Source: a virus | Taxonomy: Duplodnaviria; Heunggongvirae; Uroviricota; Caudoviricetes | Reading direction: 5' to 3' (one strand) | IMG/VR virus record: IMGVR_UViG_2778261179_000013 | Coordinates: 1-16,612 of that record | Length of the DNA stretch: 16,612 bases | Shown here: positions 911 through 16,612 of the stretch, piece after piece | Layout of the letters: each line of letters begins with the position of its first letter | Numbering within the stretch: position 1 is the stretch's first letter | Program-made: the position numbers and the translations under genes | Notes under the pieces: model-generated | Seen by the model: the letters and a program-made list of their open reading frames with translations, nothing else | What the model was told of the DNA's origin: nothing | Databases searched by the model: none

Positions 911-946
911 AAAAAGGCGCTTCCCCATGCCGAGTAGCGCCTTTTT
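911..946. terminator. Hairpin flanked by A5 and T5 runs (bidirectional intrinsic-terminator-like); probably the fis terminator
   Basis: aaaaaggcgct (911-921) is the reverse complement of agcgccttttt (936-946), with a 14-nt loop. It sits between the MTase start and the fis-like remnant. Confidence 0.5.
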
Positions 947-970
947 AATCAAGCATTTAGCTAACCTGAA

Positions 971-988
971 TTAGTTCATGCCGTACTG
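971..988 (-). other. fis 3'-end remnant (encodes YGMN-stop) and putative att core / island junction
   Basis: The minus strand reads cag tac ggc atg aac taa = Q-Y-G-M-N-stop (stop at 971-973). Fis ends ...KKYGMN. The frame is broken one codon further upstream (tga at 989-991) and there is no fis-sized ORF in 892-1155, so only the last codons are present. Confidence 0.45.
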
Positions 989-1115
989 TCATATTAGCTG
1001 TTTTCATGCTTTTAGATGATTTTAATATTCATATAATAATCAATGTGTTGTATAAATTCATGCCTGTATATTGTTCCAGTGTTTTTCTTTGTTTATGCTA
1101 TTATGTAAGCAATTC

Positions 1116-1137
1116 TGTATAAACATTTGTATAAACA
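1116..1137 (+). promoter_or_regulatory. Direct repeat TGTATAAACA x2 about 20 bp upstream of int; candidate promoter or recombinase/IHF-type site
   Basis: tgtataaaca at 1116-1125 and 1128-1137, within an AT-rich leader; a related tgtataaa lies near 1049. Confidence 0.3.
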
Positions 1138-1155
1138 CTTTGGGCTGGGTGGTCT

Positions 1156-2379
1156 ATGGCTGGCGAACTTAACAAACTGAGCGACAGGAAGTTAAAGGGA
1201 TTACATGGTATCCCGGCCAGTAAGATTGAGTTCTATGCTGATGGTGCCGGGCTGAGCGCCAAGGTAACTAAAGTTGGTGGTATTAGCTGGGTGTTTACTT
1301 ACCGACTCGACGGGCAGAAGCTGCATCGTCTTACTCTGGGACGATACCCGGATATGAGCCTCAAAGAGGCCCGTTCTTCGCGTGATAAATGCCGCCAATG
1401 GCTGGCCTCAGGTAAAGATCCAAAGCACCAGTTGGCGCTGACCACTCAGGAAACGCTTAAACCGGTCACTGTTAAGGAAGCTATCGAATACTGGATACGC
1501 GAATATGCAGAAGAGAACCGCGCGAATGTTGAAAGGCACAAAGCGGAGCTGCGTAAACACATTTATCCTTATATTGGGAAAATGGCGCTCGCTGACTGCG
1601 AAACCCGTTATTGGCTTGACTGCTTTGACAGGATGAAAAAGAAAACGCCAGTTGCTGCGGGTTATGTGTTCCAGATGTGCAAGCAAGCCCTGAAATTCTG
1701 CCGGGTTCGTCGCTATGCTGTGAGTACCGCGCTGGAAGATTTAACAATTCCAGATGTCGGTAAAAAACAGGCAAAAAAAGACCGGGTATTAAACGATAAA
1801 GAGGCTGGCGATTTATGGGCTGCCATTACCTCTGGAACTTGCTTCATGCCTTACTACACCAGGCTACTGACAATCTTAATGGTGTTTGGGTGCCGAACGC
1901 AGGAGGCCAGACTGTCAGAATGGAGTGAATGGGATATGGATGCCTGGGTCTGGACAGTTCCCAAAGAGCACAGCAAGGGCGGCGAGAAGATTGTAAGACC
2001 TGTGCCGGATGCCATGCGCAAATTCATTGAAATACTGCATGATGAAACGAAATTATCCGGCCTTTTGCTTGGGTCGGTTAAAGGCAGTGAAGCGGTAAGT
2101 CAGTGGGGCCGCGGTGTTTATAAAAAGCTGGGGCATTCTGAACCATGGACACTGCACGATCTAAGACGAACTTTAGCAACGCATATGAATAATATGGGTA
2201 TAGCACCACACGTTGTCGAACAGTTGTTGGGGCACTCAATGCCGGGAGTTATGGCGATTTATAACCGTAGTCTGTACTTGCCTGAGAAACTGGATGCGTT
2301 GAATAAATGGTATGACCGTCTCGATATTTTGGCGGGTAATCACTCGAATATTGTTATTTTAAAGGCTGGTGAGAAATGA
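1156..2379 (+). CDS. int: Tyrosine recombinase, P4-type phage integrase
   Basis: 407 aa. N-terminal arm-binding-type region (GLSAKVTKVGGISWVFTYRLDGQKLHRLTLGRYP), catalytic region with HDLRRTLATHM (HxxR) and the LGHSMPGVMAIYNRSLY tyrosine motif. Confidence 0.95.
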   Translation: MAGELNKLSDRKLKGLHGIPASKIEFYADGAGLSAKVTKVGGISWVFTYRLDGQKLHRLTLGRYPDMSLKEARSSRDKCRQWLASGKDPKHQLALTTQETLKPVTVKEAIEYWIREYAEENRANVERHKAELRKHIYPYIGKMALADCETRYWLDCFDRMKKKTPVAAGYVFQMCKQALKFCRVRRYAVSTALEDLTIPDVGKKQAKKDRVLNDKEAGDLWAAITSGTCFMPYYTRLLTILMVFGCRTQEARLSEWSEWDMDAWVWTVPKEHSKGGEKIVRPVPDAMRKFIEILHDETKLSGLLLGSVKGSEAVSQWGRGVYKKLGHSEPWTLHDLRRTLATHMNNMGIAPHVVEQLLGHSMPGVMAIYNRSLYLPEKLDALNKWYDRLDILAGNHSNIVILKAGEK

Positions 2380-2678
2380 AAAAGATAAATAAAATGACCG
2401 AATTACCGAAATGGTTTTCATTGGACAATTACAATTCTATCAATGGGCTGAGTGATCTTGATTTAATTAATCAGTTAGCTATGAGAATGGAAGTTGCTAA
2501 TGATGATTTTGAATGGCTTGATACCTATCCCGGAGCAAGAAATGAGTTCGCTTCATTTATGGAAGAAAGATTTAGTAACCCAATTCGGCCACTGAGCGGA
2601 AAATTATTTGCAGAAAAAATAAAAAGAAAAAATATTCTGAATGGCAAATGGATTCCGTCGGAGGTGTTGAGCCTTTAA
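2376..2678 (+). CDS. Hypothetical protein (AT-rich cargo ORF)
   Basis: 100-aa ORF whose ATG overlaps the int stop (ATGA at 2376-2379). Markedly AT-rich compared with the flanking genes. No motif recognised. Confidence 0.4.
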   Translation: MKKINKMTELPKWFSLDNYNSINGLSDLDLINQLAMRMEVANDDFEWLDTYPGARNEFASFMEERFSNPIRPLSGKLFAEKIKRKNILNGKWIPSEVLSL

Positions 2679-3163
2679 GATTAATTGATGTGATGCAGTT
2701 GTCTAAGAAAGCCGCTCATTATATTGATGAAAATAAAATTAATCGCTCATTGCGTGGACAAAAAAGGTCTGTAAGTAAGACCATAAGCGATAATGATCAA
2801 ATGCATATTACTTTAGATTTGTCTTGGCCTGATGAAATTTTATTAAGCGATTTGGCTGCATTGTTGCCAATATGGCGAATGGATCTTGAAAGGAAAAGTG
2901 AAAATAGTTGTAAGTTAAGTAATAGCTGGAGTGTAATCAAAAAGAAAATATTCGATTGCAAGATATTGCCAATGTTAGACCTTATGGAGTGGGCTAAAAT
3001 TAACAATGCAACAATCACTAACAGAGTTTTATCTTTAGCCCTGTTTCCTAATGCAGAGTATGACGCCATTGGTATCGCTCAAACGATCAAACCGTTCATT
3101 AGAAATTTTTCCGCAGATTTTTCTATAGAAATATTAAAGCGCAAAGCTATGGATTCATTTTAA
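2648..3163 (+). CDS. Hypothetical protein (AT-rich cargo ORF); start uncertain (alternative ATG at 2693)
   Basis: 171-aa ORF in a different frame, overlapping the previous ORF by 31 nt just after an A-rich run (2606-2632). Either a separate gene or the distal half of a frameshifted gene. No motif recognised. Confidence 0.45.
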   Translation: MDSVGGVEPLRLIDVMQLSKKAAHYIDENKINRSLRGQKRSVSKTISDNDQMHITLDLSWPDEILLSDLAALLPIWRMDLERKSENSCKLSNSWSVIKKKIFDCKILPMLDLMEWAKINNATITNRVLSLALFPNAEYDAIGIAQTIKPFIRNFSADFSIEILKRKAMDSF

Positions 3164-3266
3164 TCGGGAAATCCATATAGAAATAATTAAAAAATATCTA
3201 ATAGTGAACCATGCTTTTTAATAGCAAATAATAGCCTCCACAAAACGTAGAAACAGTGGAGGCAAC

Positions 3267-3551
3267 ATGCAAAATATCACCTTTATCCCGCCAAATCCTG
3301 AGCAGCGCCGCACCCTTTTAGAGGAGTACGGCTTTAAGTTCGACCGTCGAATCCGTGAAGAAGAATGTAGCGAGATCACCAGCCTTTCCCGTTCCAGCCG
3401 CTGGAAGATGGAACAGCAGGGGCGCTTCCCTCCGCGCTGTCACTTTGGCCGCAATAGCTGTGCCTGGCTTCTTTCGGATGTGCTCTGGTGGGTTCGTAAT
3501 CCGCCAGCAGTAGAGAACGTCAATAACCCGTACAGCCGCAAATCTGCTTAA
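3267..3551 (+). CDS. alpA: AlpA-family phage transcriptional regulator (helix-turn-helix)
   Basis: 94 aa. EITSLSRSSRWKMEQQGRFPPRCHFGRNSCAWLLSDVLWW matches the AlpA pattern (tGlSRst.Y ... G.FP ... G.rsv.W ... eV..Wl). GGAGG lies upstream of the ATG. Confidence 0.7.
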   Translation: MQNITFIPPNPEQRRTLLEEYGFKFDRRIREEECSEITSLSRSSRWKMEQQGRFPPRCHFGRNSCAWLLSDVLWWVRNPPAVENVNNPYSRKSA

Positions 3552-3571
3552 TTAACTACAGGTAATCGAAT

Positions 3572-4378
3572 ATGGAAAAAATAACTGCCTTGGCTGGCAG
3601 CGGCCAAACTCACCCCGAAACCAGCCAGAAAGATATTTCCAGCGATAATTTTGCTGCCCGGATCCCTGTAACCATGAGCACTATTGGTGGGAAAGAAACT
3701 CAGTCTGTAAGTGGTCGTAAGCTGCATACGTTTCTAGCTGTAGGGCGAGACTTTACCACCTGGATGAAAGCACGCATCAAACAGTATGGGTTTGTTAAAG
3801 GGGTTGATTATGTAATTGTTGAAGATTTGAGCACCCCAAAACGGGGGAGCGCAAAATCTCGCCAACAAGTCGAGCACGATTACATTGTCAGCCTGAATAT
3901 GGCTAAAGAGCTTTCTATGGTTGAGCGCAACGCGCAAGGCAAGATGGCCCGCCAGTATTTCATCGACTGTGAAGAACGTCTGCGCCGCGTAGCACCAGAG
4001 GAACATGAGGCGGCGTTGTTGGGCTGGCGTAAAAATCGTGTAGCTGCCTGCGAAGATCATAAGAGTATGGCCGATGCAATGAAGGGCTATATCGAGCGCA
4101 CCGGCGACAGGCAGCACGGCTTTGCCTACAGCAATGAATGCTCGTTCCTGAATAGCCTTGTGCTGGGTATGCACCCGCGAGTGTGGGCGAAACAGAAAGA
4201 AATTCCAGTTAAGCTGGTGCGTGACCATATGAACGCCGATCAGCTGGCGCTGCTGGCTTATCTGGAAAGCCGTGATTGTGCTCTGCTGGATCTTGATACC
4301 CGTACGGCAACCCGTAAGGCGAAACTCACCGAACTGGCACAACGCTGGCTGGTTAAGCGTGTTGGAGGTGCTGAGTGA
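3572..4378 (+). CDS. Phage antirepressor-like protein (AntA-type N-terminal domain)
   Basis: 268 aa. SGRKLHTFLAVGRDFTTWMKARIKQYGFVKGVDYVIV resembles the AntA/AntB antirepressor N-terminal motif (sARdLH.fL ... F..W ... ygF.eg.Dy). The C-terminal half is unassigned. Confidence 0.55.
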   Translation: MEKITALAGSGQTHPETSQKDISSDNFAARIPVTMSTIGGKETQSVSGRKLHTFLAVGRDFTTWMKARIKQYGFVKGVDYVIVEDLSTPKRGSAKSRQQVEHDYIVSLNMAKELSMVERNAQGKMARQYFIDCEERLRRVAPEEHEAALLGWRKNRVAACEDHKSMADAMKGYIERTGDRQHGFAYSNECSFLNSLVLGMHPRVWAKQKEIPVKLVRDHMNADQLALLAYLESRDCALLDLDTRTATRKAKLTELAQRWLVKRVGGAE

Positions 4379-4708
4379 TTTTGCATAACTCAATCAGGGT
4401 TGCGCAGAATTTGAGCCGACGAAATTCGCACGCGCAAATCAAGCTCGGTGATATGCCGAGTTTGAACAACCGCGTACTTTTAACGTACGGACATAGCAAC
4501 CCATTGAATCATCTTAATTATCGCGAAATGCGAGAATTGGCGAGCAACGAACACGAACAGTATTCGGGTTCGCCTGAACATCAACACTGCTTAGGTTCAG
4601 AGGTTCCGACGAATAACGTAGAGAGCTGCAATGGCAGCGCATTTTTGCTCTACGAGGGAAATCAACAACGTACAGTTTTGTACCGTAATCCAGATTTGGC
4701 TTACGAGA

Positions 4709-4768
4709 GGGTAGTACCTCAAAGTCACGAGGTTAACAGGGTAGTAACTCATAGTTACCAGGTTAACC
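4709..4768. repeat. Tandem direct repeat, 2 x 30 bp (25/30 identical), each unit containing GTTAAC
   Basis: gggtagtacctcaaagtcacgaggttaaca (4709-4738) and gggtagtaactcatagttaccaggttaacc (4739-4768). The units carry different internal stems (ACCTC/GAGGT in unit 1, GTAACT/AGTTAC in unit 2). Confidence 0.8.
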
Positions 4769-4877
4769 GCGTCGCTAAAAGATACGCGGAAAGCAAGACC
4801 TCTTTAAGAGGGGCAGTTCAGTGCGTGGAGACCTACGAAATTTTCGTAGGTCACAGCATTACCGAGAGTAACCCTGT

Positions 4878-5063
4878 TCAGCTTTCAGATTCCGATCTGG
4901 CTTTCTTGCGTTGGCGGCGTTTGATCTCGCATTGCATGGCTGTAACGATAAATTGGGCAGTGCTTTCGCCTTGCTCTTTAACTTGTTCCATTGCCTCGAC
5001 AACTTCATGCGGGGCACGAGTTTGCAATTTTTGTGATTTTTCGTTCTTTGTTCCCGTCGCCAT
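4878..5063 (-). CDS. Ribbon-helix-helix (Arc/CopG/MetJ-like) transcriptional regulator, probable island repressor
   Basis: 61 aa from the ATG at 5061-5063 (minus), preceded by AGGAGA with a 7-nt spacer. QKLQTRAP-HEVVEAMEQVKEQ-GES-TAQFIVTAMQCEI fits the RHH beta-strand / helix A / G-x-S turn / helix B pattern. The supplied ORF track starts it at a TTG at 5084. Confidence 0.65.
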   Translation of the reverse strand: MATGTKNEKSQKLQTRAPHEVVEAMEQVKEQGESTAQFIVTAMQCEIKRRQRKKARSESES

Positions 5064-5081
5064 TACTAAGTCTCCTGATAT

Positions 5082-5190
5082 CAAGTGGAGTACAGAATAC
5101 CAGAAAAATAATGAAATAAAACACTTGAAGTGGATTCCACTTTGTATTTATAGTGGAGTCCACCTTGAAGGGGTTCACCTTCAAGATATA
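5082..5190. promoter_or_regulatory. Divergent promoter/operator region with interleaved inverted repeats (half-sites AAGTGGA / TCCACTT and CACTT / AAGTG)
   Basis: cacttgaagtg (5122-5132) and aagtgga-t-tccactt (5128-5142) are overlapping palindromes; agtggagtccac (5152-5163) and ccttgaagg plus caccttcaag (5161-5185) follow. The region lies between the RHH gene and the rightward operon. Confidence 0.55.
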
Positions 5191-5261
5191 GCGAAGCCCG
5201 GCAGTGCGCGAACACTAACCGGGCCTCTGACCACCAAGATAGTTAACGTATCGAGGCAGCT

Positions 5262-5450
5262 ATGAAAGATTATATCACACACCCGCAAGGGCGGAAGTCC
5301 TACACCTGGCGTTTTCTGGCGCTGAGCGCCATCGGTCGCAACGTCATTCACATCAAAGCTACCACCGAACGCGAAGCCCGTGAGCAATCACCGGCTGGCT
5401 GCGTGATGGTATTCGCTGGCCGTCTGCCTGTGGAGGTGCGCCATGCGTGA
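5262..5450 (+). CDS. Hypothetical small protein (first gene of the rightward replication operon)
   Basis: 62-aa ORF with GAGG 5 nt upstream of the ATG; overlaps the next ORF. Confidence 0.5.
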   Translation: MKDYITHPQGRKSYTWRFLALSAIGRNVIHIKATTEREAREQSPAGCVMVFAGRLPVEVRHA

Positions 5451-5637
5451 GCCAATCAGCTTAGACCAGGCAGAATACAAATCAGCGCTGGCTGCTTCAC
5501 TTTTCGAAACCATTCTGGAAAAAGCCTGTGCTGAGTGTTCGGAAACCCTGCTGAACCATATCTCACTGGCATGTGACCTTAATCAGGAAATTCACCGGGC
5601 ATTAATCGCCGAGCTGGGTATGGGAGATGCGAAATGA
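5443..5637 (+). CDS. Hypothetical small protein
   Basis: 64-aa ORF with GGAGG 6 nt upstream of the ATG; its stop overlaps the next start (ATGA at 5634-5637). Confidence 0.5.
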   Translation: MREPISLDQAEYKSALAASLFETILEKACAECSETLLNHISLACDLNQEIHRALIAELGMGDAK

Positions 5638-5852
5638 GACAGGTTCCTTTTGAAGTCCTGATGCACGCTGAAAATGCCCTTTCTGAAAGCGAAGGAGCCT
5701 ATGAGGTTCTCAGCATGTGGCTAGACAGTATTCCTGAAGGCGAGGAGTTCCACGGTGAAGCGTGCAAGGTAAGCGCAATCATGTCGCTGCTGCATAAATC
5801 TATCGGCGAGCTGGTGAAAGCGCGGGAGGCTTACAGTGAAAAACGCGCCTAA
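5634..5852 (+). CDS. Hypothetical small acidic protein
   Basis: 72-aa ORF with GGAGA upstream; overlaps the start of the replication gene. Confidence 0.5.
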   Translation: MRQVPFEVLMHAENALSESEGAYEVLSMWLDSIPEGEEFHGEACKVSAIMSLLHKSIGELVKAREAYSEKRA

Positions 5853-7605
5853 CGTGAAAACCCTCCCACGCGACAAAATGGAGGAGGCCATCATCTTTGC
5901 CGGAACAGGAGCATGGAAAGCAGCTCAGGATTACCAGAAAGGTAAAGATGAGCATGGCGATGAGGTGCCGCCGGTTGTTCTGGATCATACCCAGCTGGCG
6001 GAATTACCCCACCTGCGCATTGTTGATAAAGGACGCCGATTTGCCCGTGTCTGTCAGGCCGGACTTATCGAACAAAACCAAATCAGTATGATTGCCAATA
6101 AGTTGTGTGAGGCTGGCGTTACCAATGCTGAGTTTATCAACGAAAAAGGTGAGAAAGAGGACTGGACGCCATTAATGAAGCGTCTGGAAGACGAGCCCCT
6201 AATGGTGACTACGAGGGGTAGCGCTACGCCAGCGCTTAACCAGATGGGAGCCAGCCAGCGCGGGGAAGTTCTGCTTGCTCATTACGATGGCAATCTGGCG
6301 ATCCATGCTGATTCCGACACGGTTCATCATTACAACGGCGTGGTGTGGGTTCCGCTTTCGGATAAAGAGCTGCAGCGAGAAATGGCGCAAATTTTTATTG
6401 ATGCCGAAGTCGCCTATTCGCAGAACGCGATTAAATCCGCTGTCGATACAATGAAGCTGGGTCTGCCAGTGATGGGTAACACAGCCCGAAATCTTATTGG
6501 TTTCAGCAACGGGGTTTTTGATACCCGGTTAGGGCAATTTCGACCACATGATAAAAAGGACTGGCTTATCGTTGCGAGCGAATTGCCATTCAGCGAACCA
6601 GCAGAAGGAGAGACTCTGGCAACCCATGCGCCGAACTTCTGGAAATGGCTCCGCCGCTCTGTGGCGGATAATGACAGAAAATCAGACCGCGTACTGTCTG
6701 CTCTGTTCATGGTGCTGGCGAACCGGTACGACTGGCAGCTGTTTCTTGAGGTAACGGGGCCGGGCGGAAGTGGTAAAAGTGTTATGGCTGAGATCTGCAC
6801 GATGCTGGCCGGCAAAGCCAATACGGTATCGGCAAGCATGGCGGCGCTGGAGAACCCAAGGGAAAGGGCGCTGGTGGTTGGCTATTCGCTGATTATCATG
6901 CCGGATATGACCCGGTACGCTGGCGACGGCGCAGGGATTAAAGCTATCACTGGCGGGGATAAGGTAGCTATCGACCCTAAACACAAAGCGCCGTATTCAA
7001 CGCGTATTCCGGCAGTGGTGCTGGCCGTCAATAACAATGCCATGTCATTCAGCGACCGAAGCGGTGGTATTTCGCGTCGTCGGGTTATTTTTAACTTCTC
7101 AGAGGTGGTACCGGAAAACGAACGTGATCCTATGCTTGCCGAGAAGATTGAAGGTGAGCTGGCCGTTATCATTCGCCACCTGCTTACTCGCTTTTCCAGA
7201 CAGGACGAGGCCAAACAGCTTTTGCATGAGCAGCAGAAATCAGAAGAGGCGCTGGCCATCAAACGTGAAGGGGATTCACTGGTGGACTTTTGCGGCTACC
7301 TGATGGCTTCGGTCGTATGTGATGGCATGTTTATCGGGAACGCCGAGATCGTACCGTTCAGCCCGCGCCGTTATCTGTATCACGCTTATCTGGCTTATAT
7401 GCGGGCTAACGGCCTGAGCAAGCCGGTGTCGCTGATGAGGTTCGGCACGGATATGCCAGGCGCAATGGCTGAATATGGCAAGGAGTACCAGAAGCGCAAA
7501 ACAAAACATGGCATAAGATCAAACGTCACACTTCACGACGATTCAGAAGACTGGATGCCTATGTGGAATGATACTTCTCACAATACCGGAGAAAATCAAA
7601 AGTAA
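5836..7605 (+). CDS. Replication initiator / SF3 helicase of the P4 alpha (D5-like) family (PICI pri-rep-like)
   Basis: 589 aa. Walker A VTGPGGSGKS, a Walker B-like LIIMPDMT region, and a D5_N-like segment (IGFSNGVFDTRLGQFRPHDKKDW). GTG start at 5836 is preceded by GGGAGG with a 7-nt spacer. No EGYATA-type primase motif seen in the N-terminal ~300 aa. Confidence 0.85.
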   Translation: MKNAPNVKTLPRDKMEEAIIFAGTGAWKAAQDYQKGKDEHGDEVPPVVLDHTQLAELPHLRIVDKGRRFARVCQAGLIEQNQISMIANKLCEAGVTNAEFINEKGEKEDWTPLMKRLEDEPLMVTTRGSATPALNQMGASQRGEVLLAHYDGNLAIHADSDTVHHYNGVVWVPLSDKELQREMAQIFIDAEVAYSQNAIKSAVDTMKLGLPVMGNTARNLIGFSNGVFDTRLGQFRPHDKKDWLIVASELPFSEPAEGETLATHAPNFWKWLRRSVADNDRKSDRVLSALFMVLANRYDWQLFLEVTGPGGSGKSVMAEICTMLAGKANTVSASMAALENPRERALVVGYSLIIMPDMTRYAGDGAGIKAITGGDKVAIDPKHKAPYSTRIPAVVLAVNNNAMSFSDRSGGISRRRVIFNFSEVVPENERDPMLAEKIEGELAVIIRHLLTRFSRQDEAKQLLHEQQKSEEALAIKREGDSLVDFCGYLMASVVCDGMFIGNAEIVPFSPRRYLYHAYLAYMRANGLSKPVSLMRFGTDMPGAMAEYGKEYQKRKTKHGIRSNVTLHDDSEDWMPMWNDTSHNTGENQK

Positions 7606-7860
7606 TGGGAAAAGTGTTCACCACTATTCACTGTGGATAAAATCGTTTATATAACAGATATTTAAGGGGTGAACACTTTTTATTGAAGTGTTCACCAAGT
7701 ATTCACCTGTTCACCTTTAAAGGGCTTTTCTTTTAAAAGGTGAAGGGTTAGGGTGAACACTAGTGAATACTTAAAATTATAGTCTTCACCCTGTAACCAT
7801 ATGAATTTGAATGGAAAAAATGCAAAGGTGAACAGGTGAACACTTAAACGCATATTTTTT
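7606..7860. repeat. Iteron array and AT-rich tract; putative origin of replication (P4 ori/crr-like)
   Basis: At least 10 copies of GGTGAACA(CTT) or its reverse complement (AAG)TGTTCACC, e.g. 7612-7622, 7668-7678, 7686-7696, 7709-7716, 7751-7760, 7826-7833, 7834-7844, plus variants (tattcacc, gtgaatac, cttcacc), followed by T-rich runs at 7852-7866. Placement immediately 3' of the replication gene is typical for these satellites. Confidence 0.75.
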
Positions 7861-7878
7861 ATTTTTACGAGGCTGCAT

Positions 7879-8223
7879 ATGGAAATTTTAGGCAACCATA
7901 ACGACAAGTTTCACGGCATCAAATTTCTGCATAGTGCAATTGAAGAAATGAATGAGAAAGCTGAAGTAACTCTGACCGACTATCTGGCTCTTAGGGCTTT
8001 TGTTCTGGCTGAGCGAAGAGAAACTCAGGACTACATTGATGCAATGGATGAAACGTATGCTGATTTGCCCGATGATCTGCGTTCTTACATTGAGCTTCTT
8101 AATGACGTTGCCGCACAGCTATCAAATCCATCACGCTCAAATGGGAATTTAAAATCAATTATTTACGATGCGAGAATATCAAGCGGAAACGCCATGTCTC
8201 ACTGGTTCAGTGTTGATAGATAG
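7879..8223 (+). CDS. Hypothetical protein (AT-rich cargo, gene 1 of a two-gene cassette)
   Basis: 114-aa ORF with ACGAGG 6 nt upstream of the ATG. Acidic and predicted helical; no motif recognised. Compositionally distinct from the flanking replication and head genes. Confidence 0.55.
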   Translation: MEILGNHNDKFHGIKFLHSAIEEMNEKAEVTLTDYLALRAFVLAERRETQDYIDAMDETYADLPDDLRSYIELLNDVAAQLSNPSRSNGNLKSIIYDARISSGNAMSHWFSVDR

Positions 8224-8246
8224 TAAAATCTAAGAAGGGATAACTA

Positions 8247-9092: not shown

Positions 9093-9128
9093 CAAGTGTA
9101 AATTATTCGTCCTCGCGTTTATTAGTGC

Positions 9129-9160
9129 TTAGCCCGATAAAATTCGGGCTTTTATTTATT
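9129..9160 (+). terminator. Rho-independent terminator after the cargo cassette
   Basis: Stem agcccg (9131-9136) / cgggct (9145-9150) with an 8-nt loop, followed by tttatttatt (9151-9160). Confidence 0.6.
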
Positions 9161-9324
9161 ATTTTCATGTATATGTTGAGAAGTGGCACTCAGACGTGAG
9201 CCGCCACTGGCCGTTAAATCAAGCTGTAGCGAGTACAGCCTGTGGGATGCAGAAAAAGATTTAACGGCCTCCCCTCCAAGCGCTGGTTTCACGTCTCTAC
9301 GTTAATTGATACGGAAACCACTCC

Positions 9325-10491
9325 ATGAAGAAACTACTCGAATTACGCCAGCAGAAAGCCACACTCAAAACCCAGATGCGTTCCATGCTGGACAAAGCCG
9401 ACACCGAAAAGCGCAGCCTGAACGAAGAAGAGGGCAAAAAGTTCGATGAACTCCGCGCCCAGGCTGATGCGCTTGAAGTTGAAATTACCCGCCTCGAAGC
9501 CGTCGCCGACGATCAGCGCAATCTGCCTGGTACTTCCGTTGAAGGTGAGCTAGTAAGCAACGACGAGCTGCGTCACTACATTATGACCGGTGATACCCGT
9601 TCTCTCTCCACGCTGGTGCAGGCTGACGGCGGTTATACCGTTATTCCTGAACTGGACAAAGAGATCATGCGTCAGTTGCAGGATGATAGCGTGATGCGCT
9701 CCATCGCAACGGTAAAGACCACCAAAACCAACGAATACCAGAAACTGGTATCTGTGGGCGGCACTACCGTTAAGCGCGGTACCGAAGGCGAAGCGCGTAC
9801 CGAAACCAGCACGCCGAAGATGGAGCGTGTTGATATCAAACTCAACCCGATCTACGCCTATCCGAAAACCACTCAGGAAATTCTCGACTTCTCTGAGGTG
9901 GATATTCTGGGCTGGCTGTCTTCTGAAATTGCCGACACCTTCACCGCTACCGAAGAGAGCGACTTTGTGAACGGCGACGGTGATAAAAAATCCAAAGGGT
10001 TCCTGTCTTACCCTCGCGCGGCCACAGCCGATAAAACCCGCCCGTTCGGTACGCTGGAGAAGATGGAAGCTGCTGACGTTTCCTCTGATGGCCTGATCGA
10101 CCTGCTGTATAAGCTGAAAGCCAAATACCGCAAAAACGCCGTATGGGTGATGAACTCCAATACCGCGGCCAAACTGCAAAAGCTGAAAAACGGCAACGGG
10201 GATTACATCTGGCGAGATCGTCTGGTTGCCGGTTCTCCCGATACGCTGCTGGGCCGTCCGGTTCAATATCTCGAAACCATGCCAGATGCGGAAGCAGGTG
10301 AAGCGTTCCTTGCTGTGGGCGACTTCAAACGCGGCTATTTCATCGTGGATCACACCACTGGTGTGCGTACCCGTCCTGACAACATCACCGAACCGGGTTT
10401 CTACAAGGTACATACCGATAAATACCTGGGCGGCGGCGTGGTGGACTCCAACGCCATCAAGGTGCTTGAGCTTTCCGGCTCCGGTTCCTGA
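9325..10491 (+). CDS. Major capsid protein, HK97 family (with N-terminal delta/scaffold-like coiled coil)
   Basis: 388 aa. N-terminal coiled-coil region (LELRQQKATLKTQMRSMLDKADTEKRSLNEEEGKKFDELRAQADALEVEITRLEA) and HK97-MCP-like core blocks (GGYTVIPE ... AVWVMNSNTAAKLQKLKNGNGDYIW ... LLGRPV ... GDFKRGYFIVDH). Confidence 0.9.
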   Translation: MKKLLELRQQKATLKTQMRSMLDKADTEKRSLNEEEGKKFDELRAQADALEVEITRLEAVADDQRNLPGTSVEGELVSNDELRHYIMTGDTRSLSTLVQADGGYTVIPELDKEIMRQLQDDSVMRSIATVKTTKTNEYQKLVSVGGTTVKRGTEGEARTETSTPKMERVDIKLNPIYAYPKTTQEILDFSEVDILGWLSSEIADTFTATEESDFVNGDGDKKSKGFLSYPRAATADKTRPFGTLEKMEAADVSSDGLIDLLYKLKAKYRKNAVWVMNSNTAAKLQKLKNGNGDYIWRDRLVAGSPDTLLGRPVQYLETMPDAEAGEAFLAVGDFKRGYFIVDHTTGVRTRPDNITEPGFYKVHTDKYLGGGVVDSNAIKVLELSGSGS

Positions 10492-10539
10492 TTTGACGTT
10501 TGAGGGGCTTAGGCCCCTTTTCTCCTGTGGAGTCCAACA

Positions 10540-11100
10540 ATGAAAACAATTGATTTTGAAATCCGCACCTCCGATCTGAGCGCCAGTAACAAAAAGCTGG
10601 TGGGCTATGCCGTGCGCTGGAACAGTCTCTCTGAAATTATCTGGGACGAGTTCCGCGAGCAGTTTGCGCCGGGAGCGTTTAAAGACAGCCTGGCATCAGG
10701 TAGCGATGTGCGTGCGCTGTACGAGCATAACTATACCCAGCTGCTGGGCCGCACTAAATCCGGAACGCTGGTGCTGTCCGAAGACGATACCGGGCTGCGC
10801 TTCGAGCTGACCCCGCCGAATACCCAGCTTGGTAACGATGTGCTGGAGCTGGTGGAGCGTGGTGATATCTCCGGCATGAGCTTTGGTTTCCGGGCGCTGA
10901 AAGAGGCGTGGGATATCGGCCAGTCTCCATACCTGCGCACTGTTACCGCAGCCGAACTGCGGGAGATTACCGTTACCTCTATGCCTGCTTATCCTGAGTC
11001 TGGCGTGGAAATCGCGCACCGTTCGCTTTTCTCCCAACATCCTGAACTGCGCCGCGCTGGCGATAACCGTCGCCGCTGGGCTGAATTAGCGGGGCTCTGA
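10540..11100 (+). CDS. Prohead maturation protease, HK97 family (S78-like)
   Basis: 186 aa. LVGYAVRWNS ... FAPGAFKDSL ... LYEHNY ... GMSFGF fits the HK97 prohead protease pattern, including the candidate His and Ser residues. Confidence 0.85.
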   Translation: MKTIDFEIRTSDLSASNKKLVGYAVRWNSLSEIIWDEFREQFAPGAFKDSLASGSDVRALYEHNYTQLLGRTKSGTLVLSEDDTGLRFELTPPNTQLGNDVLELVERGDISGMSFGFRALKEAWDIGQSPYLRTVTAAELREITVTSMPAYPESGVEIAHRSLFSQHPELRRAGDNRRRWAELAGL

Positions 11101-11101
11101 T

Positions 11102-12337
11102 ATGTGGAATATCTGGCCGTTTGGCCGCAAGTCTGAACCCTCTGAGCAGCGCAGCATGACCATTGATGAATTTCTGGCGATGGCAGGGATTCCAAATACC
11201 GGATCAGGCGAGTATGTGTCTGCGGGTACTGCGGAATCTCTGCCGGCGGTCATGAACGCCGTATCAGTTATCAGTGAGGCGGTGGCAACAATGCCATGCT
11301 ATCTCTACCGCGTCCGTAATGATAATGGTCGTGAGGCGCGAGAATGGCTGAGTAATCACCCGGTGGATTTTCTCCTGAACGAGCAGCCGAACGACTGCCA
11401 GACGCCTTATCAGTTTAAACGCACGATGATGCGCCATTGTCTGCTGAACGGTAACGCCTATGCGGTGATCCAGTGGGGCCGCGACGGCCAGCCGCAATCC
11501 CTGCACCCGTATGCGCCGGGGGCGGTTGTTCCTGAGCGTATCGGCCAGCATAAGTACAAATACACCGTTACAGAGCCGTTTACCGGGGCTGTGCGCACCT
11601 ATCTACAGGAAGAGATTCTGCACCTGCGTTACTCCACCGATGATGGCTTTCTGGGGCGTTCGCCTATTACTACGTGCCGTGAGGCGCTGGGGTTAGGTCT
11701 GGCCCAACAGCGCCACGGTGCCAGCATTATGAAAGATGGCATGATGGCGGCGGGCGTCGTCACTACTGCTGAATGGCTCGACAGCGTGAAGGGTAAGCAG
11801 GCTCTGGACGCACTGGAGCGCTACAAAGGTGCCAGAAATGCCGGGAAAACGCCGATCCTTGAAGGTGGCATGGATTATAAGCAGCTGGGCATGAGCAATC
11901 AGGATGCCGAATGGCTGGCCTCTCGTCGCTTCACCATTGAAGACATTGCCCGCATGTTCAACGTGTCGCCTATCTTCCTGCAGGAATACAGCAACAGCAC
12001 CTACAGCAATTTCAGCGAAGCGAGCCGCGCCTTTCTTACCATGACGATGCGCCCGTGGCTGGCGAACTTCGAACAACAAATCAAATCTGCGCTGCTGGTG
12101 GCCTCCCCAGTCCCAGGAACCCGTTATCAGGTGGAGTTTGACTCTGCTGACCTTCTCCGCGCCACGCCAACCGAACGTTATGCCACTTATGAGCGCGGTA
12201 TTAAGAACGGGATCATGAACCCGAACGAAGCCCGAGAGCGTGAGGGGATGCCACCGCGTGAAGGTGGTGACGAATTCAGCCAGGCATGGAAGCAGGAAGT
12301 GAAGATCAGCAAAGACGGCAAGGAAGGTGACGCATGA
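11102..12337 (+). CDS. Portal protein, HK97 family
   Basis: 411 aa. Conserved blocks LLNGNAYAVI, GFLGRSPI, FTIEDIARMFNVSPIFLQE and NPNEAREREGMPP match the HK97-type portal pattern. Its start is 2 nt after the protease stop. Confidence 0.9.
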   Translation: MWNIWPFGRKSEPSEQRSMTIDEFLAMAGIPNTGSGEYVSAGTAESLPAVMNAVSVISEAVATMPCYLYRVRNDNGREAREWLSNHPVDFLLNEQPNDCQTPYQFKRTMMRHCLLNGNAYAVIQWGRDGQPQSLHPYAPGAVVPERIGQHKYKYTVTEPFTGAVRTYLQEEILHLRYSTDDGFLGRSPITTCREALGLGLAQQRHGASIMKDGMMAAGVVTTAEWLDSVKGKQALDALERYKGARNAGKTPILEGGMDYKQLGMSNQDAEWLASRRFTIEDIARMFNVSPIFLQEYSNSTYSNFSEASRAFLTMTMRPWLANFEQQIKSALLVASPVPGTRYQVEFDSADLLRATPTERYATYERGIKNGIMNPNEAREREGMPPREGGDEFSQAWKQEVKISKDGKEGDA

Positions 12338-12672
12338 GAGCCGGGGGGCTGAGAAGCCGCGTCACTATTCGGGTATTCACTACCCACAGGGAGCCGTCCG
12401 GTCAGGTTGTTCAGGTCTGGGAAGACGGGGAAACCATATGGGCTGAGGTTAAGGGGATCAGTGGCCGAGAGTTAATGGCGTCAGGTGCCGAGGTTGCCGA
12501 AGCGACGATCCGCGTTTGGGTGCGTTTCCGCCGTGATATTACCGCAGCCAACCGTCTGAAAGTGCTTACTGGCCCGTTTGCTGGCAGCACTCTCAATATT
12601 ATCGGGCCTCCTATTCCTGATTCGGAAGGTACCCGGCTGGAAATTCTCTGCAAGACAGGAACGGAAAAATGA
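12334..12672 (+). CDS. Head-tail adaptor / head closure protein (SPP1 gp16-like)
   Basis: 112 aa; RVTIRVFTTHREPSGQVVQVWEDGETIWAEVKGISGRE fits the head-tail joining family pattern. ATGA overlap with the portal gene. Confidence 0.7.
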   Translation: MRAGGLRSRVTIRVFTTHREPSGQVVQVWEDGETIWAEVKGISGRELMASGAEVAEATIRVWVRFRRDITAANRLKVLTGPFAGSTLNIIGPPIPDSEGTRLEILCKTGTEK

Positions 12673-12962
12673 CAGCAGAAATCACCCTGGATGAAGCAAA
12701 GCTGCATTGCCGTATTGATGATGATTACGAAGATACGTTGATACAGGCGTACATCGATGCGGCGCTGGAGGTTTGCCAGAAGCATATCGGCAAGCGGTTT
12801 GATAACGGGCTGGAGTTTACGCCAGCTATCAAGATTGGCTGTCTGATGTACGTATCTCAGCTGTACGAGTACCGCACGATGATTGGTGATACCGACGCCA
12901 AAGAGATACCGATGGCTGTCTCTGCGTTGTGGTCTGTCTATCGTGATGTGGGGGTGTACTGA
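12669..12962 (+). CDS. Head-tail connector protein (gp6-like)
   Basis: 97 aa; ITLDEAKLHCRIDDDYEDTLIQAYIDAALEVCQKHIGKR ... YEYR fits the gp6-like connector pattern. ATGA overlap with the upstream gene. Confidence 0.7.
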   Translation: MTAEITLDEAKLHCRIDDDYEDTLIQAYIDAALEVCQKHIGKRFDNGLEFTPAIKIGCLMYVSQLYEYRTMIGDTDAKEIPMAVSALWSVYRDVGVY

Positions 12963-13405
12963 TGCCGTGGCAACCACTACGCCGGTGCAATGAGCCTGGA
13001 TGTAATAAACGGGTGAAGTCTGGCAAGTGTGACGAGCATAAGCGGGATGCCCGCCGACAAAGCGACAGCCGAAGAGGTACGCGAACAGAGCGTGGTTACT
13101 CCAACCGCTGGGGCGAATACCGTCGTCATTTTCTAAAAGCTAATCCGCTGTGTGTCCATTGTCTCAAGGCTGGCGTCTATGCATCGGCAACTATCGTCGA
13201 TCACATCATCCCTATCGAGGGTGAAGCTGATGTGCTGTTCTGGCCCGCCAGTAATCACCAGTCGTTATGCGCTGCCTGTCATGGACGGAAGACAACCACA
13301 ACAGACCCGGTGACGAAGCAGCAGCGTAAAGCCGGTAAGTTCCGCGAGCAGGAAGAAGCAGCACGTCATCGCACCGACTGGATCTATGAGGCAAACAATG
13401 ACTGA
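12962..13405 (+). CDS. HNH endonuclease (packaging-associated)
   Basis: 147 aa. Cys-rich N-terminus (CNEPGCNKRVKSGKCDEH) and an HNH core (CVHC ... DHIIPIEGEADVLFWPASNHQSLCAACHGRKT). Position next to the terminase genes is typical of HNH-cos packaging systems. Confidence 0.85.
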   Translation: MPWQPLRRCNEPGCNKRVKSGKCDEHKRDARRQSDSRRGTRTERGYSNRWGEYRRHFLKANPLCVHCLKAGVYASATIVDHIIPIEGEADVLFWPASNHQSLCAACHGRKTTTTDPVTKQQRKAGKFREQEEAARHRTDWIYEANND

Positions 13406-13550
13406 GCAGGAACAGCAGCGGCTGATTAGTGGGCTGATAAAGCAGCGTGAGTCATGGCAACCAGCCAGACAGAGAGCGCATAAGAAGCCCGTAGCAAAGC
13501 GCATGAGCCAGCGTGACCGGGAGCTTATGGAATGCTTTCGCAACCGCTGA
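13398..13550 (+). CDS. Possible small basic protein (50 aa), unannotated in the ORF track
   Basis: The ATG at 13398 overlaps the HNH gene end and the frame is open to the TGA at 13548-13550, giving MTEQEQQRLISGLIKQRESWQPARQRAHKKPVAKRMSQRDRELMECFRNR. Below the track's length cut-off; low support. Confidence 0.3.
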   Translation: MTEQEQQRLISGLIKQRESWQPARQRAHKKPVAKRMSQRDRELMECFRNR

Positions 13551-13680
13551 CAGGCCGAATGGACGGGGTGGGGGAGGTTTTAAAGACAAACCCCTCTCAG
13601 CGAGGAACCACCCGCCCCCTCAAATTTTTACGCACGGTGATTTTTTTGAAAATAAAACGCGACGGAAACGAGAAATTTTT

Positions 13681-14037
13681 ATGGCAAGACCACCCAAACC
13701 GCCAGCTTACCTTGATGAGTTAGCTGCGCAGCAGTGGAAAGCGAAGGCGAAGCAACTGGCGGAGCGCGGGGATTTGACTCCCGCCGACTGGAACAACCTT
13801 GAGCTTTTTTGCGTCAACTATTCGATGTACCGCAAAGCCGTGGAAGACCTTGCCAGCCGTGGGTTCAGCATTGTTAACAGCCAGGGCGGTGAGAGCCGAA
13901 ATCCGGCGCTGAGCGCAAAGGCCGATGCTGAAAAAATCATGATTAAAATGTCGTCGCTGCTGGGCTTTGATCCGGTAAGCCGCCGCCGGAACCCGGTGGA
14001 AACGGAGGAGGAAGACGAGCTTGACCGTCTGGAATGA
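13681..14037 (+). CDS. terS: Terminase small subunit (P27-family-like)
   Basis: 118 aa from the ATG at 13681: MARPPKPPAYLDELAAQQWKAKAKQLAERGDLTPADWNNLELFCVNYSMYRKA ... The track ORF from 13513 adds an implausible Gly-rich N-terminal extension, so the internal ATG is preferred. Confidence 0.8.
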   Translation: MARPPKPPAYLDELAAQQWKAKAKQLAERGDLTPADWNNLELFCVNYSMYRKAVEDLASRGFSIVNSQGGESRNPALSAKADAEKIMIKMSSLLGFDPVSRRRNPVETEEEDELDRLE

Positions 14038-15682
14038 GTACGCAAACGCGATAAAAACGGGCGAAATTCCGGCCTGTAAGCGCGTAAAACAGGCCGTGGA
14101 AAGGTACTTTTCAGACCTGAATGACCCCCGTTATGTGTTCGATACGGCGACCGTAGAGCGGTTTATTGCGTTCTCGCGGCTCTGTCCTCACGTCAAAGGC
14201 CCGTTGCGCGGGCAGTCTATCGAGCTGGAGCCGTGGCAGCAGTTCGCCTTTGCTAACCTGCTGGGCTTTAAAGTCAGGGAGTCAGGCCGCCGGAAGTATA
14301 GCAGCGCCTTTATTGAGGTGCCGCGCAAGAATGCCAAATCCACCGTGGCCGCCATGCTGGCTAACTGGTTTCTGGTGATGGAGAAGGGCCAGCAGGATAT
14401 CTACACGGCGGCGGTAAGCCGGGATCAGGCCCGAATCGTGTTCGACGATGCCCGCCAGATGTGCCTGCTGTCAAAACCGCTGAAAAAGCGCGTCAGTATT
14501 CAGGCACACAAGGTCATTTTCCCGAAGAGCAACAGCCTGTTAAAGCCGCTGGCGGCAAAAGCGGCCACCATTGAAGGGACTAACCCCAGCCTGGCGATTG
14601 TCGATGAGTACCACCTTCACCCGGATAACGGCGTTTATTCCGCGCTTGAGCTGGGTATGGGCGCCCGTCCTGAGGCAATTTTGTTCGCCATCACTACCGC
14701 CGGGAGTAACGTAGTCTCGGCCTGTAAGCAGCATTATGACTACTGCTGCCAGATTCTGGCAGGGGAAGAGAGCAACGATTCTCTGTTTGTCCTGATATAC
14801 GAGCTGGACGACGAAATTGAGGTTGAGCAGCCGGAAATGTGGATTAAGGCCAACCCTAACCTGCATGTGTCTGTTGACGCAGCGAAGCTGGAATCCACCA
14901 TCCAGAAAGCGCGGGGGATACCGTCGCAATGGGTGGAAATGCTCACCAAACGTTTCAATATCTGGTGTCAGGGCTCCACGCCGTGGATGGGGGCTGGCGC
15001 GTGGGATGCCTGTGCACTCGACTATAACGAAGAAGAGCTGGTCGGAATGGAGTGTTATGCCGGGTTTGACCTGTCCTCAACCAGCGATATCACCAGCGTG
15101 AGTTACGCTTTCCCGTTTGACAGGGAGATCCGGCTTCTGACCCGCCACTATCTACCGGAAGCGCAACTGCTTAACGTCGCCAACAAAAACCGCGCCATCT
15201 ATCGCCAGTGGGTAAAAACGGGCTGGATACGCACCACACCCGGCGACTGTATCGACTATGACCGCATTCGTGACGATATCCTGCGCGATGCTGAAACCTT
15301 CAATATTCGGCTGGTGGGCTTTGATACGTGGAACGCTACGCATCTGCGCACCCAGCTACAGGGTGCGGGCCTTGATGTTGAGCCATTCCCGCAAACCTAT
15401 CTCAGGTTCAGTCCGGTAGCGAAATCCTTTGAAGTGTTTGTTAACCGCAGGGTAGTGCGCCATCGCGGTGATCCGGTTCTGGCCTGGGCGATTGGTAACG
15501 TGGTGATGGAGTCCGACGCCAATGCCAACATCAAGCCCAACAAAAAGAAATCCTCCAACAAGATAGATCCGGCTGTGTCTGCGTTAATGGCGTTTGGCAC
15601 CTTCCAGGCTGAGCACGAGGATTTTGCATTTGATATGAGTGACAGTCACAAACAACGGCTAGCTGATTTCAATGGGCTTTGA
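14021..15682 (+). CDS. terL: Terminase large subunit
   Basis: 553 aa. Walker A-like EVPRKNAKST, Walker B-like LAIVDEYH and a C-terminal nuclease-type region. Apparent TTG start at 14021 overlapping the terS end, so the start codon is uncertain. Confidence 0.9.
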   Translation: MTVWNEYANAIKTGEIPACKRVKQAVERYFSDLNDPRYVFDTATVERFIAFSRLCPHVKGPLRGQSIELEPWQQFAFANLLGFKVRESGRRKYSSAFIEVPRKNAKSTVAAMLANWFLVMEKGQQDIYTAAVSRDQARIVFDDARQMCLLSKPLKKRVSIQAHKVIFPKSNSLLKPLAAKAATIEGTNPSLAIVDEYHLHPDNGVYSALELGMGARPEAILFAITTAGSNVVSACKQHYDYCCQILAGEESNDSLFVLIYELDDEIEVEQPEMWIKANPNLHVSVDAAKLESTIQKARGIPSQWVEMLTKRFNIWCQGSTPWMGAGAWDACALDYNEEELVGMECYAGFDLSSTSDITSVSYAFPFDREIRLLTRHYLPEAQLLNVANKNRAIYRQWVKTGWIRTTPGDCIDYDRIRDDILRDAETFNIRLVGFDTWNATHLRTQLQGAGLDVEPFPQTYLRFSPVAKSFEVFVNRRVVRHRGDPVLAWAIGNVVMESDANANIKPNKKKSSNKIDPAVSALMAFGTFQAEHEDFAFDMSDSHKQRLADFNGL

Positions 15683-15718
15683 TAGTGCTTGAACTTTTCA
15701 AATTGTCACTGTAATTCT

Positions 15719-16612
15719 TTAATATTCGACTTGCTGAGCCGGAACGGAGTTTAAAATCCAGCATTCTTGATGGACAAAATTTATATTCAGAGCAGATAAA
15801 TATTGTTGCTCATATGCTCTGTATATTAATAGTTTTGTTTGATTCTGATCATCCAATTCATAATCCGTTTTTGCAGTGCTCCATTGGGAGTGAAGCATTA
15901 CTGATTGAACAAAGGAGTTCATCTTTATACTCATGTTCATTACATTTGAAGATGTTCCGGCATATTTGTATGAGTCGATTACCGTGTTTTTTCCATCGCC
16001 ATCAACATCGAAAGGATTGGATATCCACTTGAATGTATTTAACAAAAAAAGATTGGCGACCCAAGTGTAATCGTTGCCGTTTATATTTTCTGTGGTAGAA
16101 GAGCTAATGCTTTCATGGAGATTGGTTGCCCCCATGAAAATCGCCTCAGGATCTATCTTTCCGTCAGACCTTCGCTGCCTTCCGGCTGCTAAGTAATTGA
16201 AAATGCCAGCATAACACTGCCCCATATATACTATCGCTCTATCTAAATCTGGCGTTGTTTTTATGCGATTAAGTAACCTATAGGGCGGTATTGGTGGGAG
16301 GGCGTCCAATCCATGCATACTTCCATGACCCGTTATAAATATAACTATATTATCATGGGTATTATCGTCGCAATCCGAAAAAAATTCGCTGCTTCTTTTT
16401 ACATTATATTGATGGTTAGTGCCAACTGAGATTAATTTTTGTATATTTCCTCTGTTGTTTCCATCTATATAAATAAAAATATCAGCAGGATTAATTCCAC
16501 GATTTTCTAAGCAGTAAATCCCAAAGGCCAGATCAGAAACATGCCGATCTTCCGGCTCACTGCTGGAAGCCAAAAAAAGAACCCATTTTGTTTTGTCTGC
16601 TAATAGCCCCAT
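15719..16612 (-). CDS. Caspase-like (clan CD, C13/C14-type) peptidase-domain protein; N-terminus at the window edge, possibly partial
   Basis: 297 aa on the minus strand with stop at 15719-15721 and ATG exactly at 16610-16612. Clan CD layout: hydrophobic strand ending in His-Gly (NIVIFITGHG) followed about 38 residues later by a strand ending in the catalytic-type Cys (AIVYMGQCYAG). AT-rich and convergent with terL. Confidence 0.6.
   Translation of the reverse strand: MGLLADKTKWVLFLASSSEPEDRHVSDLAFGIYCLENRGINPADIFIYIDGNNRGNIQKLISVGTNHQYNVKRSSEFFSDCDDNTHDNIVIFITGHGSMHGLDALPPIPPYRLLNRIKTTPDLDRAIVYMGQCYAGIFNYLAAGRQRRSDGKIDPEAIFMGATNLHESISSSTTENINGNDYTWVANLFLLNTFKWISNPFDVDGDGKNTVIDSYKYAGTSSNVMNMSIKMNSFVQSVMLHSQWSTAKTDYELDDQNQTKLLIYRAYEQQYLSALNINFVHQECWILNSVPAQQVEY

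Follow-up and report, generated by a model that had tools for sequence, protein, structure and literature searches.

What kind of element encodes a complete head and packaging module and no tail? This question is raised by a stretch of DNA of 16,612 nucleotides, positions 1 to 16,612 of the IMG/VR virus record IMGVR_UViG_2778261179_000013, which is filed under the Caudoviricetes and is hereafter called the window. An earlier note, made from the letters of the window, had read everything from position 987 onward as a capsid-forming phage-inducible chromosomal island (cf-PICI), a satellite that builds its own small capsids and takes its tails from a helper phage. The analysis reported here supports that interpretation through the content and order of the genes, their similarity to the cf-PICI EcCIEDL933 and the finding of a tail-less element bounded by two att copies. 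With a probability of roughly 0.9, the window holds almost all of an intact cf-PICI of ~16.4 kb that belongs to the fis-integrating lineage including KpCIDSM30104, the island very probably deposited as the phage record vB_KppS-Ant.

The cf-PICI class was described in a preprint of 2022 (Alqurainy et al., bioRxiv 10.1101/2022.09.08.507074), the fis site in 2023 (PMC10111431), and experiments on the lineage of the island followed in 2025 (He et al., bioRxiv 10.1101/2025.02.11.637232). Considering that class, lineage and insertion site have all been published and that a near-identical copy is present in RefSeq, the element is already known. Its main worth lies in the demonstration that a cf-PICI is recognisable from raw sequence, and a modest residual value resides in its cargo genes and in an unexplained region upstream of icd. 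cf-PICIs are topical for the combination of tail-less capsids with the tails of different phages, which can lead to the crossing of species boundaries.

Boundaries and gene content of the island

Megablast searches against complete E. coli genomes identified the window as E. coli chromosome, with a 99.9% match over its full length in strain ABW_S38 (NZ_CP067265.1, 3416290-3432902). In K-12 MG1655 the site is empty, with fis and yhdJ adjacent and 85 bp apart; in the window, everything from ~970 onward is inserted. The att core, ATTAGTTCATGCCGTA, is a 16-bp direct repeat that duplicates the last fis codons and the stop, and its left copy shows the left start of 987 proposed in the earlier note to be correct within 2 nt. 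The right copy is found in ABW_S38 (segment L001 29356-29371), ~745-760 bp past the end of the window, where it overlaps the final four fis codons together with the stop. Measured from att copy to att copy, inclusive, the island comprises 16,402 bp, a satellite-sized genome that would suit a small T=4 capsid and is comparable with the 15.4 kb of EcCIEDL933 and the 16.5 kb of vB_KppS-Ant. The element had also been predicted to run past the right edge of the window, which it does by merely ~760 bp; extension into the near-identical ABW_S38 genome uncovered one 100-aa gene, the second att copy and fis, and no tail or lysis genes, leaving an island bounded by yhdJ and fis.

A fis-proximal end of the same kind was found in eight other contigs. 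Just inside the right end lies a terminator-like hairpin (AAAAAGGCGCTT...AAGCGCCTTTTTT) that stands in for the native fis terminator; as read from the junctions, integration restores the end of fis and supplies a replacement terminator. A scan of the window for tRNA genes found none, so the att site is of another kind. The att core is instead the reverse complement of TACGGCATGAACTAA, the published identity block of 3565 'fis' islands, one of which, Kpn47.16.fis, underwent excision and replication after mitomycin C (PMC10111431). These fis PICIs resemble the island in their site, the TACGGCATGAACTAA att block, AlpA, the absence of tail signature genes and the position of yhdJ on the far side. 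The same study treats the fis islands as PICIs and discusses 'late gene capture', with 0 occurrences of the term cf-PICI.

A cf-PICI is defined by PICI-type int, alpA and rep genes, by a capsid-protease-portal-connector-hnh-terS-terL series of its own and by the absence of tail genes (Alqurainy et al., bioRxiv 10.1101/2022.09.08.507074). Gene calling by Pfam, PHROGs, NCBIfam and PADLOC searches (Table 1) located PICI-type int, alpA and a replication module at the island's left end (Pfam, PHROGs, NCBIfam), each of the P4-type integrase, the AlpA regulator and the D5/P4-family helicase being confirmed by a profile of its own. The capsid, protease, portal, two adaptors (an adaptor and a connector), HNH, TerS and TerL were likewise confirmed by profiles in the places where the earlier note had put them. 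From int, alpA and rep through capsid, protease, portal, connectors and hnh to terS and terL, the genes stand in the published order of proteobacterial cf-PICIs. The earlier account was thus right about the genes that it named, and it left unmentioned three cargo slots and the AntA-like and Icd-like genes.

Among the checked ORFs of the att-bounded element, no match to tail, baseplate, holin, endolysin or lysis families was obtained with Pfam or PHROGs, in agreement with the absence of tail, baseplate and lysis genes claimed before; the scan covered all annotated ORFs, with the right end taken from the 99.9% identical ABW_S38 copy. A complete temperate prophage was therefore rejected, tail, lysis and immunity modules being without a match and the element being bounded by yhdJ and fis. 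Nor do the head genes match a resident full prophage, a refuting outcome that the earlier note had named, as the module occurs at a single place in the ABW_S38 genome and genuine phages match the capsid at 36% identity or less. A decayed prophage, which had its tail, lysis and immunity modules deleted and lost its mobility, could account for head genes of phage (HK97) type, for one frameshifted gene and for the rarity of the exact island, whose packaging module occurs at ≥80% identity in about 23 of 5426 complete E. coli genomes. This explanation is nevertheless very improbable: neither att copy is damaged, no break interrupts the int, alpA, replication and head/packaging ORFs, and these ORFs give nearly full-length Pfam profile matches. 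In hundreds of genomes and in several genera the same tail-less design is seen again, at fis and elsewhere, the island is much more alike between two strains than the flanking yhdJ, and close relatives have been mobilised experimentally. Moreover, no prophage occupied the fis site in the survey of 3565 islands (PMC10111431).

Head and packaging module, relatives and mobility

The head and packaging genes form one co-directional block on the plus strand (9325-15682). Identities of the packaging proteins to their EcCIEDL933 counterparts run from 53 to 82%, inside the range of 50-90% given for the cf-PICI family (Alqurainy et al.). The capsid matched PDB 9gyi_B with an E-value of 1.8e-159, an entry for a 385-aa 'Major head protein' equal in length to the capsid of EcCIEDL933, which builds its own small capsids and receives only tails from its helper (bioRxiv 10.1101/2022.09.08.507074). 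The next-best matches in the structural database were RcGTA capsids at ~1e-50. A gene transfer agent was rejected in view of the integrase, the replication gene, the iteron array and the att sites, its sole link to the island being that RcGTA capsid match (E 2.5e-50).

In the phage collection, capsid identity to genuine phages was 36% at most, and the high-identity matches were small or odd records. The top match among them was the 'phage' vB_KppS-Ant (LR881103.1), of 16,548 bp. HK97, HK022, SfI and SfII share with the island an HK97-fold capsid with a delta domain, an S78 protease, a portal and HNH-dependent cos packaging, whereas HK97-like phages have a capsid only ~35% identical and ~40-kb genomes that include modules for tail, lysis and immunity. 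As a side observation, vB_KppS-Ant, which was described as a filamentous ssDNA phage representing a novel genus (PMC8006926), is a cf-PICI by gene content, and a similar case may be the Pasteurella 'phage' Pmp8 (15.3 kb, with a capsid of 62.5% identity).

Satellites that redirect capsid proteins encoded by a helper had also to be weighed. The satellite P4 resembles the island in its P4-type integrase, its P4/D5-family helicase and its dependence on a helper. P4 itself lacks capsid and terminase genes and uses Sid to reshape the capsids of P2. A P4-like satellite or a classical PICI would fit the integrase and the helicase, and AlpA and an Icd-like gene are common to classical E. coli PICIs; yet the island has a complete set of capsid, protease, portal and terminase genes, and no match of the Sid, Psu, Delta, Rpp or Ppi type was found in any library scanned, which makes this explanation the least credible of those considered.

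Two characterised cf-PICIs serve as points of comparison. EcCIEDL933, located in EDL933 between roxA and phoQ, has an identical module order, including a small ORF between hnh and terS. It differs from the island in that site (fis in the island), in an integrase of 50% identity and in its cargo, and its replication genes encode a DUF927-type protein and an SSB, whereas the island has a D5-type helicase. vB_KppS-Ant (16,548 bp) is nearer, with the same architecture and size as the island (~16.4 kb) and with core proteins (Int, AlpA, replication, capsid, protease, portal, TerS, TerL) that are 93-98% identical. Its adaptor, HNH and connector are diverged, however, and its Bro-zone gene and all of its cargo differ; after terL it carries a lone tape-measure-like gene, in contrast to a protease pair in the island. 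Variation between KpCIDSM30104 and EcCIGN02175 was reported around the packaging module, downstream of alpA and in the adaptor/connector (bioRxiv 10.1101/2025.02.11.637232), and it is in those variable regions that the island and vB_KppS-Ant diverge.

The vB_KppS-Ant sequence stems from the assembly of a phage lysate on K. pneumoniae DSM 30104, in whose genome a stretch matches it at >99% identity (PMC8006926). KpCIDSM30104 of the same strain was induced, released tail-less capsids and was transferred into E. coli with HK022 tails (bioRxiv 10.1101/2025.02.11.637232). By comparison of these accounts, the two names very probably denote one island.

The small ORF between hnh and terS encodes 51 amino acids, aligns with the equally placed small ORFs of EcCIEDL933 and vB_KppS-Ant and is presumably the equivalent of 'gene 1792' of EcCIEDL933. 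The HNH protein acts as a terminase accessory in HNH-dependent cos packaging (Alqurainy et al., bioRxiv 10.1101/2022.09.08.507074), and a cos site probably lies within the conserved candidate region that follows the small ORF and contains a G-run and then a C-run. The lysate-derived vB_KppS-Ant record breaks in this region and is without ~70 nt kept by integrated relatives. The ends of that record were rejected as proof of cos, considering that submitters often start records at terS; the ~70-nt gap is suggestive.

Of the 5426 complete E. coli genomes, 543 contain the packaging module in recognisable form. Related modules with 87-95% nucleotide identity were found in Enterobacter, Phytobacter, Kosakonia and Kluyvera, and related islands at fis also in Klebsiella-like contigs. 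A comparison of the window with ABW_S38 gave 13 differences over the 891 positions of yhdJ (1.5%), against 5 substitutions and 1 indel (~0.04%) over 15.6 kb of the island. Because the island is far more alike than the flanking gene, the comparison suggests that it arrived recently by horizontal transfer in one or both of the strains; recombination in yhdJ is the alternative.

The adaptor, which in the cf-PICI family is reported to help set which tails fit, shows the greatest divergence from vB_KppS-Ant of all core genes. The adaptors of E. coli GN02050 and Enterobacter hormaechei B17-3 match it at 100% identity, and the connector of GN02050 is likewise 100% identical. As an observation in its own right, this pattern fits the published idea that swaps of adaptor and connector retarget cf-PICI capsids to other tails. 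With its core near vB_KppS-Ant and its adaptor diverged, the island offers a natural variant for the question of tail choice.

A cf-PICI with an intact sequence may still be stranded, that is, not currently mobilisable for want of a compatible inducer or tail donor or through an undetected regulatory defect. Resident prophages often neither induce cf-PICIs nor give compatible tails (He et al., bioRxiv 10.1101/2025.02.11.637232), and a stop interrupts the frame upstream of the Icd motif here and in ABW_S38, a frame that is open in five relatives (see below). The occurrence of an identical adaptor across genera argues for ongoing cross-genus spread, however, and the connector shared with GN02050 and the near-identity of the island in two diverged strain backgrounds also speak against this explanation, which is unlikely but deserves more weight than the decayed prophage.

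For a mobile cf-PICI, the following course can be proposed from experiments on EcCIEDL933, KpCIDSM30104 and EcCIGN02175. A helper phage would switch on alpA and the island would excise, replicate from its own iteron origin and assemble its own small T=4 HK97-type capsids. The HNH-TerS-TerL proteins of the island would cut unit-length DNA at a cos site that separates hnh from terS and package it, and the filled tail-less heads would then dock onto phage-made tails, with the adaptor and the connector predicted to determine the fit.

Several points weigh against assigning the window to an intact, mobile cf-PICI of this lineage. What is said of induction, of small capsids, of the cos cleavage site and of tail capture is carried over from relatives, and the equation of vB_KppS-Ant with KpCIDSM30104 draws on the common strain and on the identity of >99% in PMC8006926. 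The right 760 bp come from a different, near-identical genome, ABW_S38, and are presumed to be the same here. One cargo gene, that for the DUF6387 protein, is frameshifted. The adaptor is just 43% identical to that of vB_KppS-Ant, so its compatible tails cannot be read across. The sequence itself holds nothing that contradicts the cf-PICI interpretation.

Table 1. Features of the window and of the adjoining right end in ABW_S38, with amino acid identities to two related islands
Feature	Position	Strand	Evidence	Identity to EcCIEDL933 (%)	Identity to vB_KppS-Ant (%)
yhdJ, DNA adenine methyltransferase	1-891	-	Pfam; ABW_S38 annotation		
Left att core ATTAGTTCATGCCGTA	970-985	.	Three-way alignment: empty K-12 site and both ABW_S38 junctions		
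Doubled arm-type repeat TGTATAAACATTTGTATAAA, candidate integrase arm-binding site	1116-1138	+	Repeat analysis; putative binding		
P4-type tyrosine integrase	1156-2379	+	Pfam Arm-DNA-bind_3 1.3e-18, Phage_integrase 1.9e-17	50	97
5' cargo, DUF6387 gene in two ORFs (2376-2678, 2648-3163)	2376-3163	+	Pfam DUF6387 in both halves		
AlpA regulator/excisionase	3267-3551	+	Pfam Phage_AlpA 4e-10; phrog_2790 2e-39	47	98
AntA/AntB-type (Bro-zone) protein	3572-4378	+	Pfam AntA 1.5e-23; PHROG anti-repressor families		
296-codon open frame between antA and icd	4375-5265	+	Open frame without Pfam or PHROG match		
YlcI/YnfO-family small protein	4878-5084	-	NCBIfam NF041551 8.6e-19; phrog_949; annotated in ABW_S38		
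Icd-like protein	5262-5450	+	NCBIfam phage_ICD_like 2.9e-17	51	
Two small conserved ORFs (64 and 72 aa) upstream of replication gene	5443-5852	+	phrog_35285, phrog_2196		91 and 99
Replication protein, D5/P4-family SF3 helicase	5836-7605	+	Pfam D5_N, DUF5906, Pox_D5; phrog_864 'DNA primase' 2.5e-152		97
Iteron array, ten GGTGAAYAC-like repeats, both orientations	7614-7843	.	Motif scan		
Middle cargo, 114-aa protein	7879-8223	+	phrog_7232, phrog_29508 for the pair with the nuclease		
Middle cargo, 281-aa pAgo-associated-type nuclease	8247-9092	+	PADLOC Aga_Nuclease 7e-84; Pfam pP_pnuc_1, pP_pnuc_2		
Terminator-like hairpin after middle cargo	9131-9150	.	Terminator scan		
HK97-fold major capsid protein, N-terminal delta (scaffold) region	9325-10491	+	Pfam Phage_capsid 7e-69	64	98
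Prohead serine protease (S78)	10540-11100	+	Pfam Peptidase_S78 1e-47	63	96
Portal	11102-12337	+	Pfam 1.6e-96	80	96
Head closure protein/head-tail adaptor	12334-12672	+	Pfam Phage_HCP 3e-22	53	43
gp6-like head-tail connector	12669-12962	+	Pfam Phage_connect_1 1e-11	63	87
HNH endonuclease	12962-13405	+	Pfam HNH 7.5e-07	62	61
51-aa conserved ORF between hnh and terS, C-terminus DRELMECFRNR	13395-13550	+	phrog_3173 4e-17		
Candidate cos region, G-run (GGGGTGGGGGAGG) then C-run (CCACCCGCCCCCTC)	13551-13680	.	Conserved in EcCIEDL933 and GN02050		
TerS, small terminase (P27 family)	13681-14037	+	Pfam Terminase_4 3e-25	81	94
TerL, large terminase	14021-15682	+	Pfam TerL_ATPase, TerL_nuclease	82	93
3' cargo, 297-aa legumain-like (clan CD, C13-like) cysteine protease	15719-16612	-	Fold resemblance, conserved residues		
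100-aa partner of the 297-aa protease	ABW_S38 segment L001 28637-28939	-	Beyond the window		

Arm sites, replication and the region upstream of icd

Exact 20-nt copies of the TGTATAAACATTTGTATAAA repeat occur at 1116-1135 of the window and, inside the right end, in ABW_S38 (segment L001 29270-29289), and a half-site of the repeat is also present at 1048-1056. In the reconstructed attP the copies lie ~150 bp downstream and ~82 bp upstream of the core, a spacing that would match the geometry expected of integrase arm sites. As a separate observation, this geometry (~+150/-82) is near the +132/-81 of a different doubled motif in helper-embedded PICIs, a motif that was stated not to be found in fis PICI attPs (PMC10111431).

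The replication protein is annotated by NCBI as a 'DNA primase family protein'. No Toprim or zinc-ribbon primase domain was detected in the helicase, and the NCBIfam model for the C-terminus of P4-family primases scored below its cutoff (99 vs 108.7 bits). The iteron origin that the earlier note had placed beside the helicase gene corresponds to the ten repeats lying directly downstream of it. The whole window contains 18 near-matches to GGTGAAYAC, 10 of the 18 within 7614-7843, and shuffled sequences gave a mean of 5.5, none of them reaching 18. As the array adjoins rep, it is read as the putative replication origin.

Between alpA and rep, the position occupied by the AntA-type gene is variable in content among relatives, and the AntA-type product shows 22% identity to that of the GN02050 gene at the same position. 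The YlcI/YnfO-family gene is transcribed divergently from icd. In vB_KppS-Ant the open frame between antA and icd is annotated as a single ORF fused to icd. In five diverged relatives the icd frame is free of stops for 205-313 codons upstream of the Icd motif and the other two frames hold 8-21 stops, whereas in the window and in ABW_S38 a stop stands just 22 codons upstream of the conserved motif. Substitutions within 4375-5265 are evenly spread over codon positions and a codon-position bias is absent. Within the frame, a stretch of ~90 nt (4550-4640) hardly varies and a 30-nt unit stands twice in tandem (4708-4767), and on the minus strand the antisense of the icd leader (5186-5261) has an unusually strong predicted fold (z = -4.1). 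The C4 antisense RNA family (P1 c4/P4 CI immunity RNA type), which would be expected upstream of icd, gave no Rfam match; searches of the whole window and of 4300-5300 at permissive E-values against Rfam returned sub-threshold, chance-level matches only. The ~890-nt region between antA and icd stands without an explanation.

Accessory genes in the three variable slots

The immune genes of PICIs are reported from both ends, 5' and 3', and from downstream of pri (PMC11364771). In the island, the slot behind int, the one behind the replication gene and the one behind terL, which are the three known for PICI cargo, are all occupied, and these variable slots carry accessory genes that are probably anti-phage.

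In the 5' slot, the DUF6387 gene is split by a 1-nt deletion in the A-run at 2627-2633, which is A6 here and A7 in ABW_S38, where the gene is a single CDS of 262 aa. The deletion could be a sequencing error, the mark of a pseudogene or a site of slippage. The middle pair (7879-9092) matched phrog_7232 and phrog_29508, and no Argonaute gene was found in the island beside the Aga-type nuclease.

The 3' slot holds the protease pair. The 297-aa protein folds like a legumain/GPI8 cysteine protease (C13, clan CD) and has >270 homologues (E ≤ 0.001) of ~50% identity, in enterics and as far afield as Burkholderia, Pseudomonas and Xanthomonas. Its His96 and Cys133 are invariant. The upstream partner of ~100 aa is kept in P. 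aeruginosa (45% identity) and Xanthomonas and always precedes the protease gene. Neither protein of the pair gave a Pfam, NCBIfam or PADLOC v2.0.0 match. The surroundings of the pair vary and often include known defence genes: in P. aeruginosa it is flanked by hsdR and two reverse-transcriptase genes, in P. fragi it adjoins PLD and SIR2 genes, in Serratia it lies in the integrase-proximal part of a prophage, and in Burkholderia it lies in an integrase/resolvase island. In Klebsiella-like contigs it is always found between fis and terL of cf-PICIs. No legumain- or caspase-like defence system matching the pair is described in the titles and abstracts of the papers that a literature search listed. 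It is tentatively proposed, as a possibility held at less than even odds, that the pair may be an undescribed anti-phage module, probably of the abortive-infection type, or a toxin module, exchanged among cf-PICIs, prophages and defence islands. A pair so widely conserved and unannotated is a worthwhile candidate for phage challenge.

Relatives bear a lone tail-type gene in the 3' slot after terL. In vB_KppS-Ant (L005 2036-4333) it encodes a 765-aa tape-measure-like protein (phrog_2854, 2e-176), and in E. coli GN02050 (L009 18805-19404) a 199-aa tail-assembly-like protein (phrog_32, 2e-74). Tail interference and tail adaptation are both possible roles for these lone tail-type genes.

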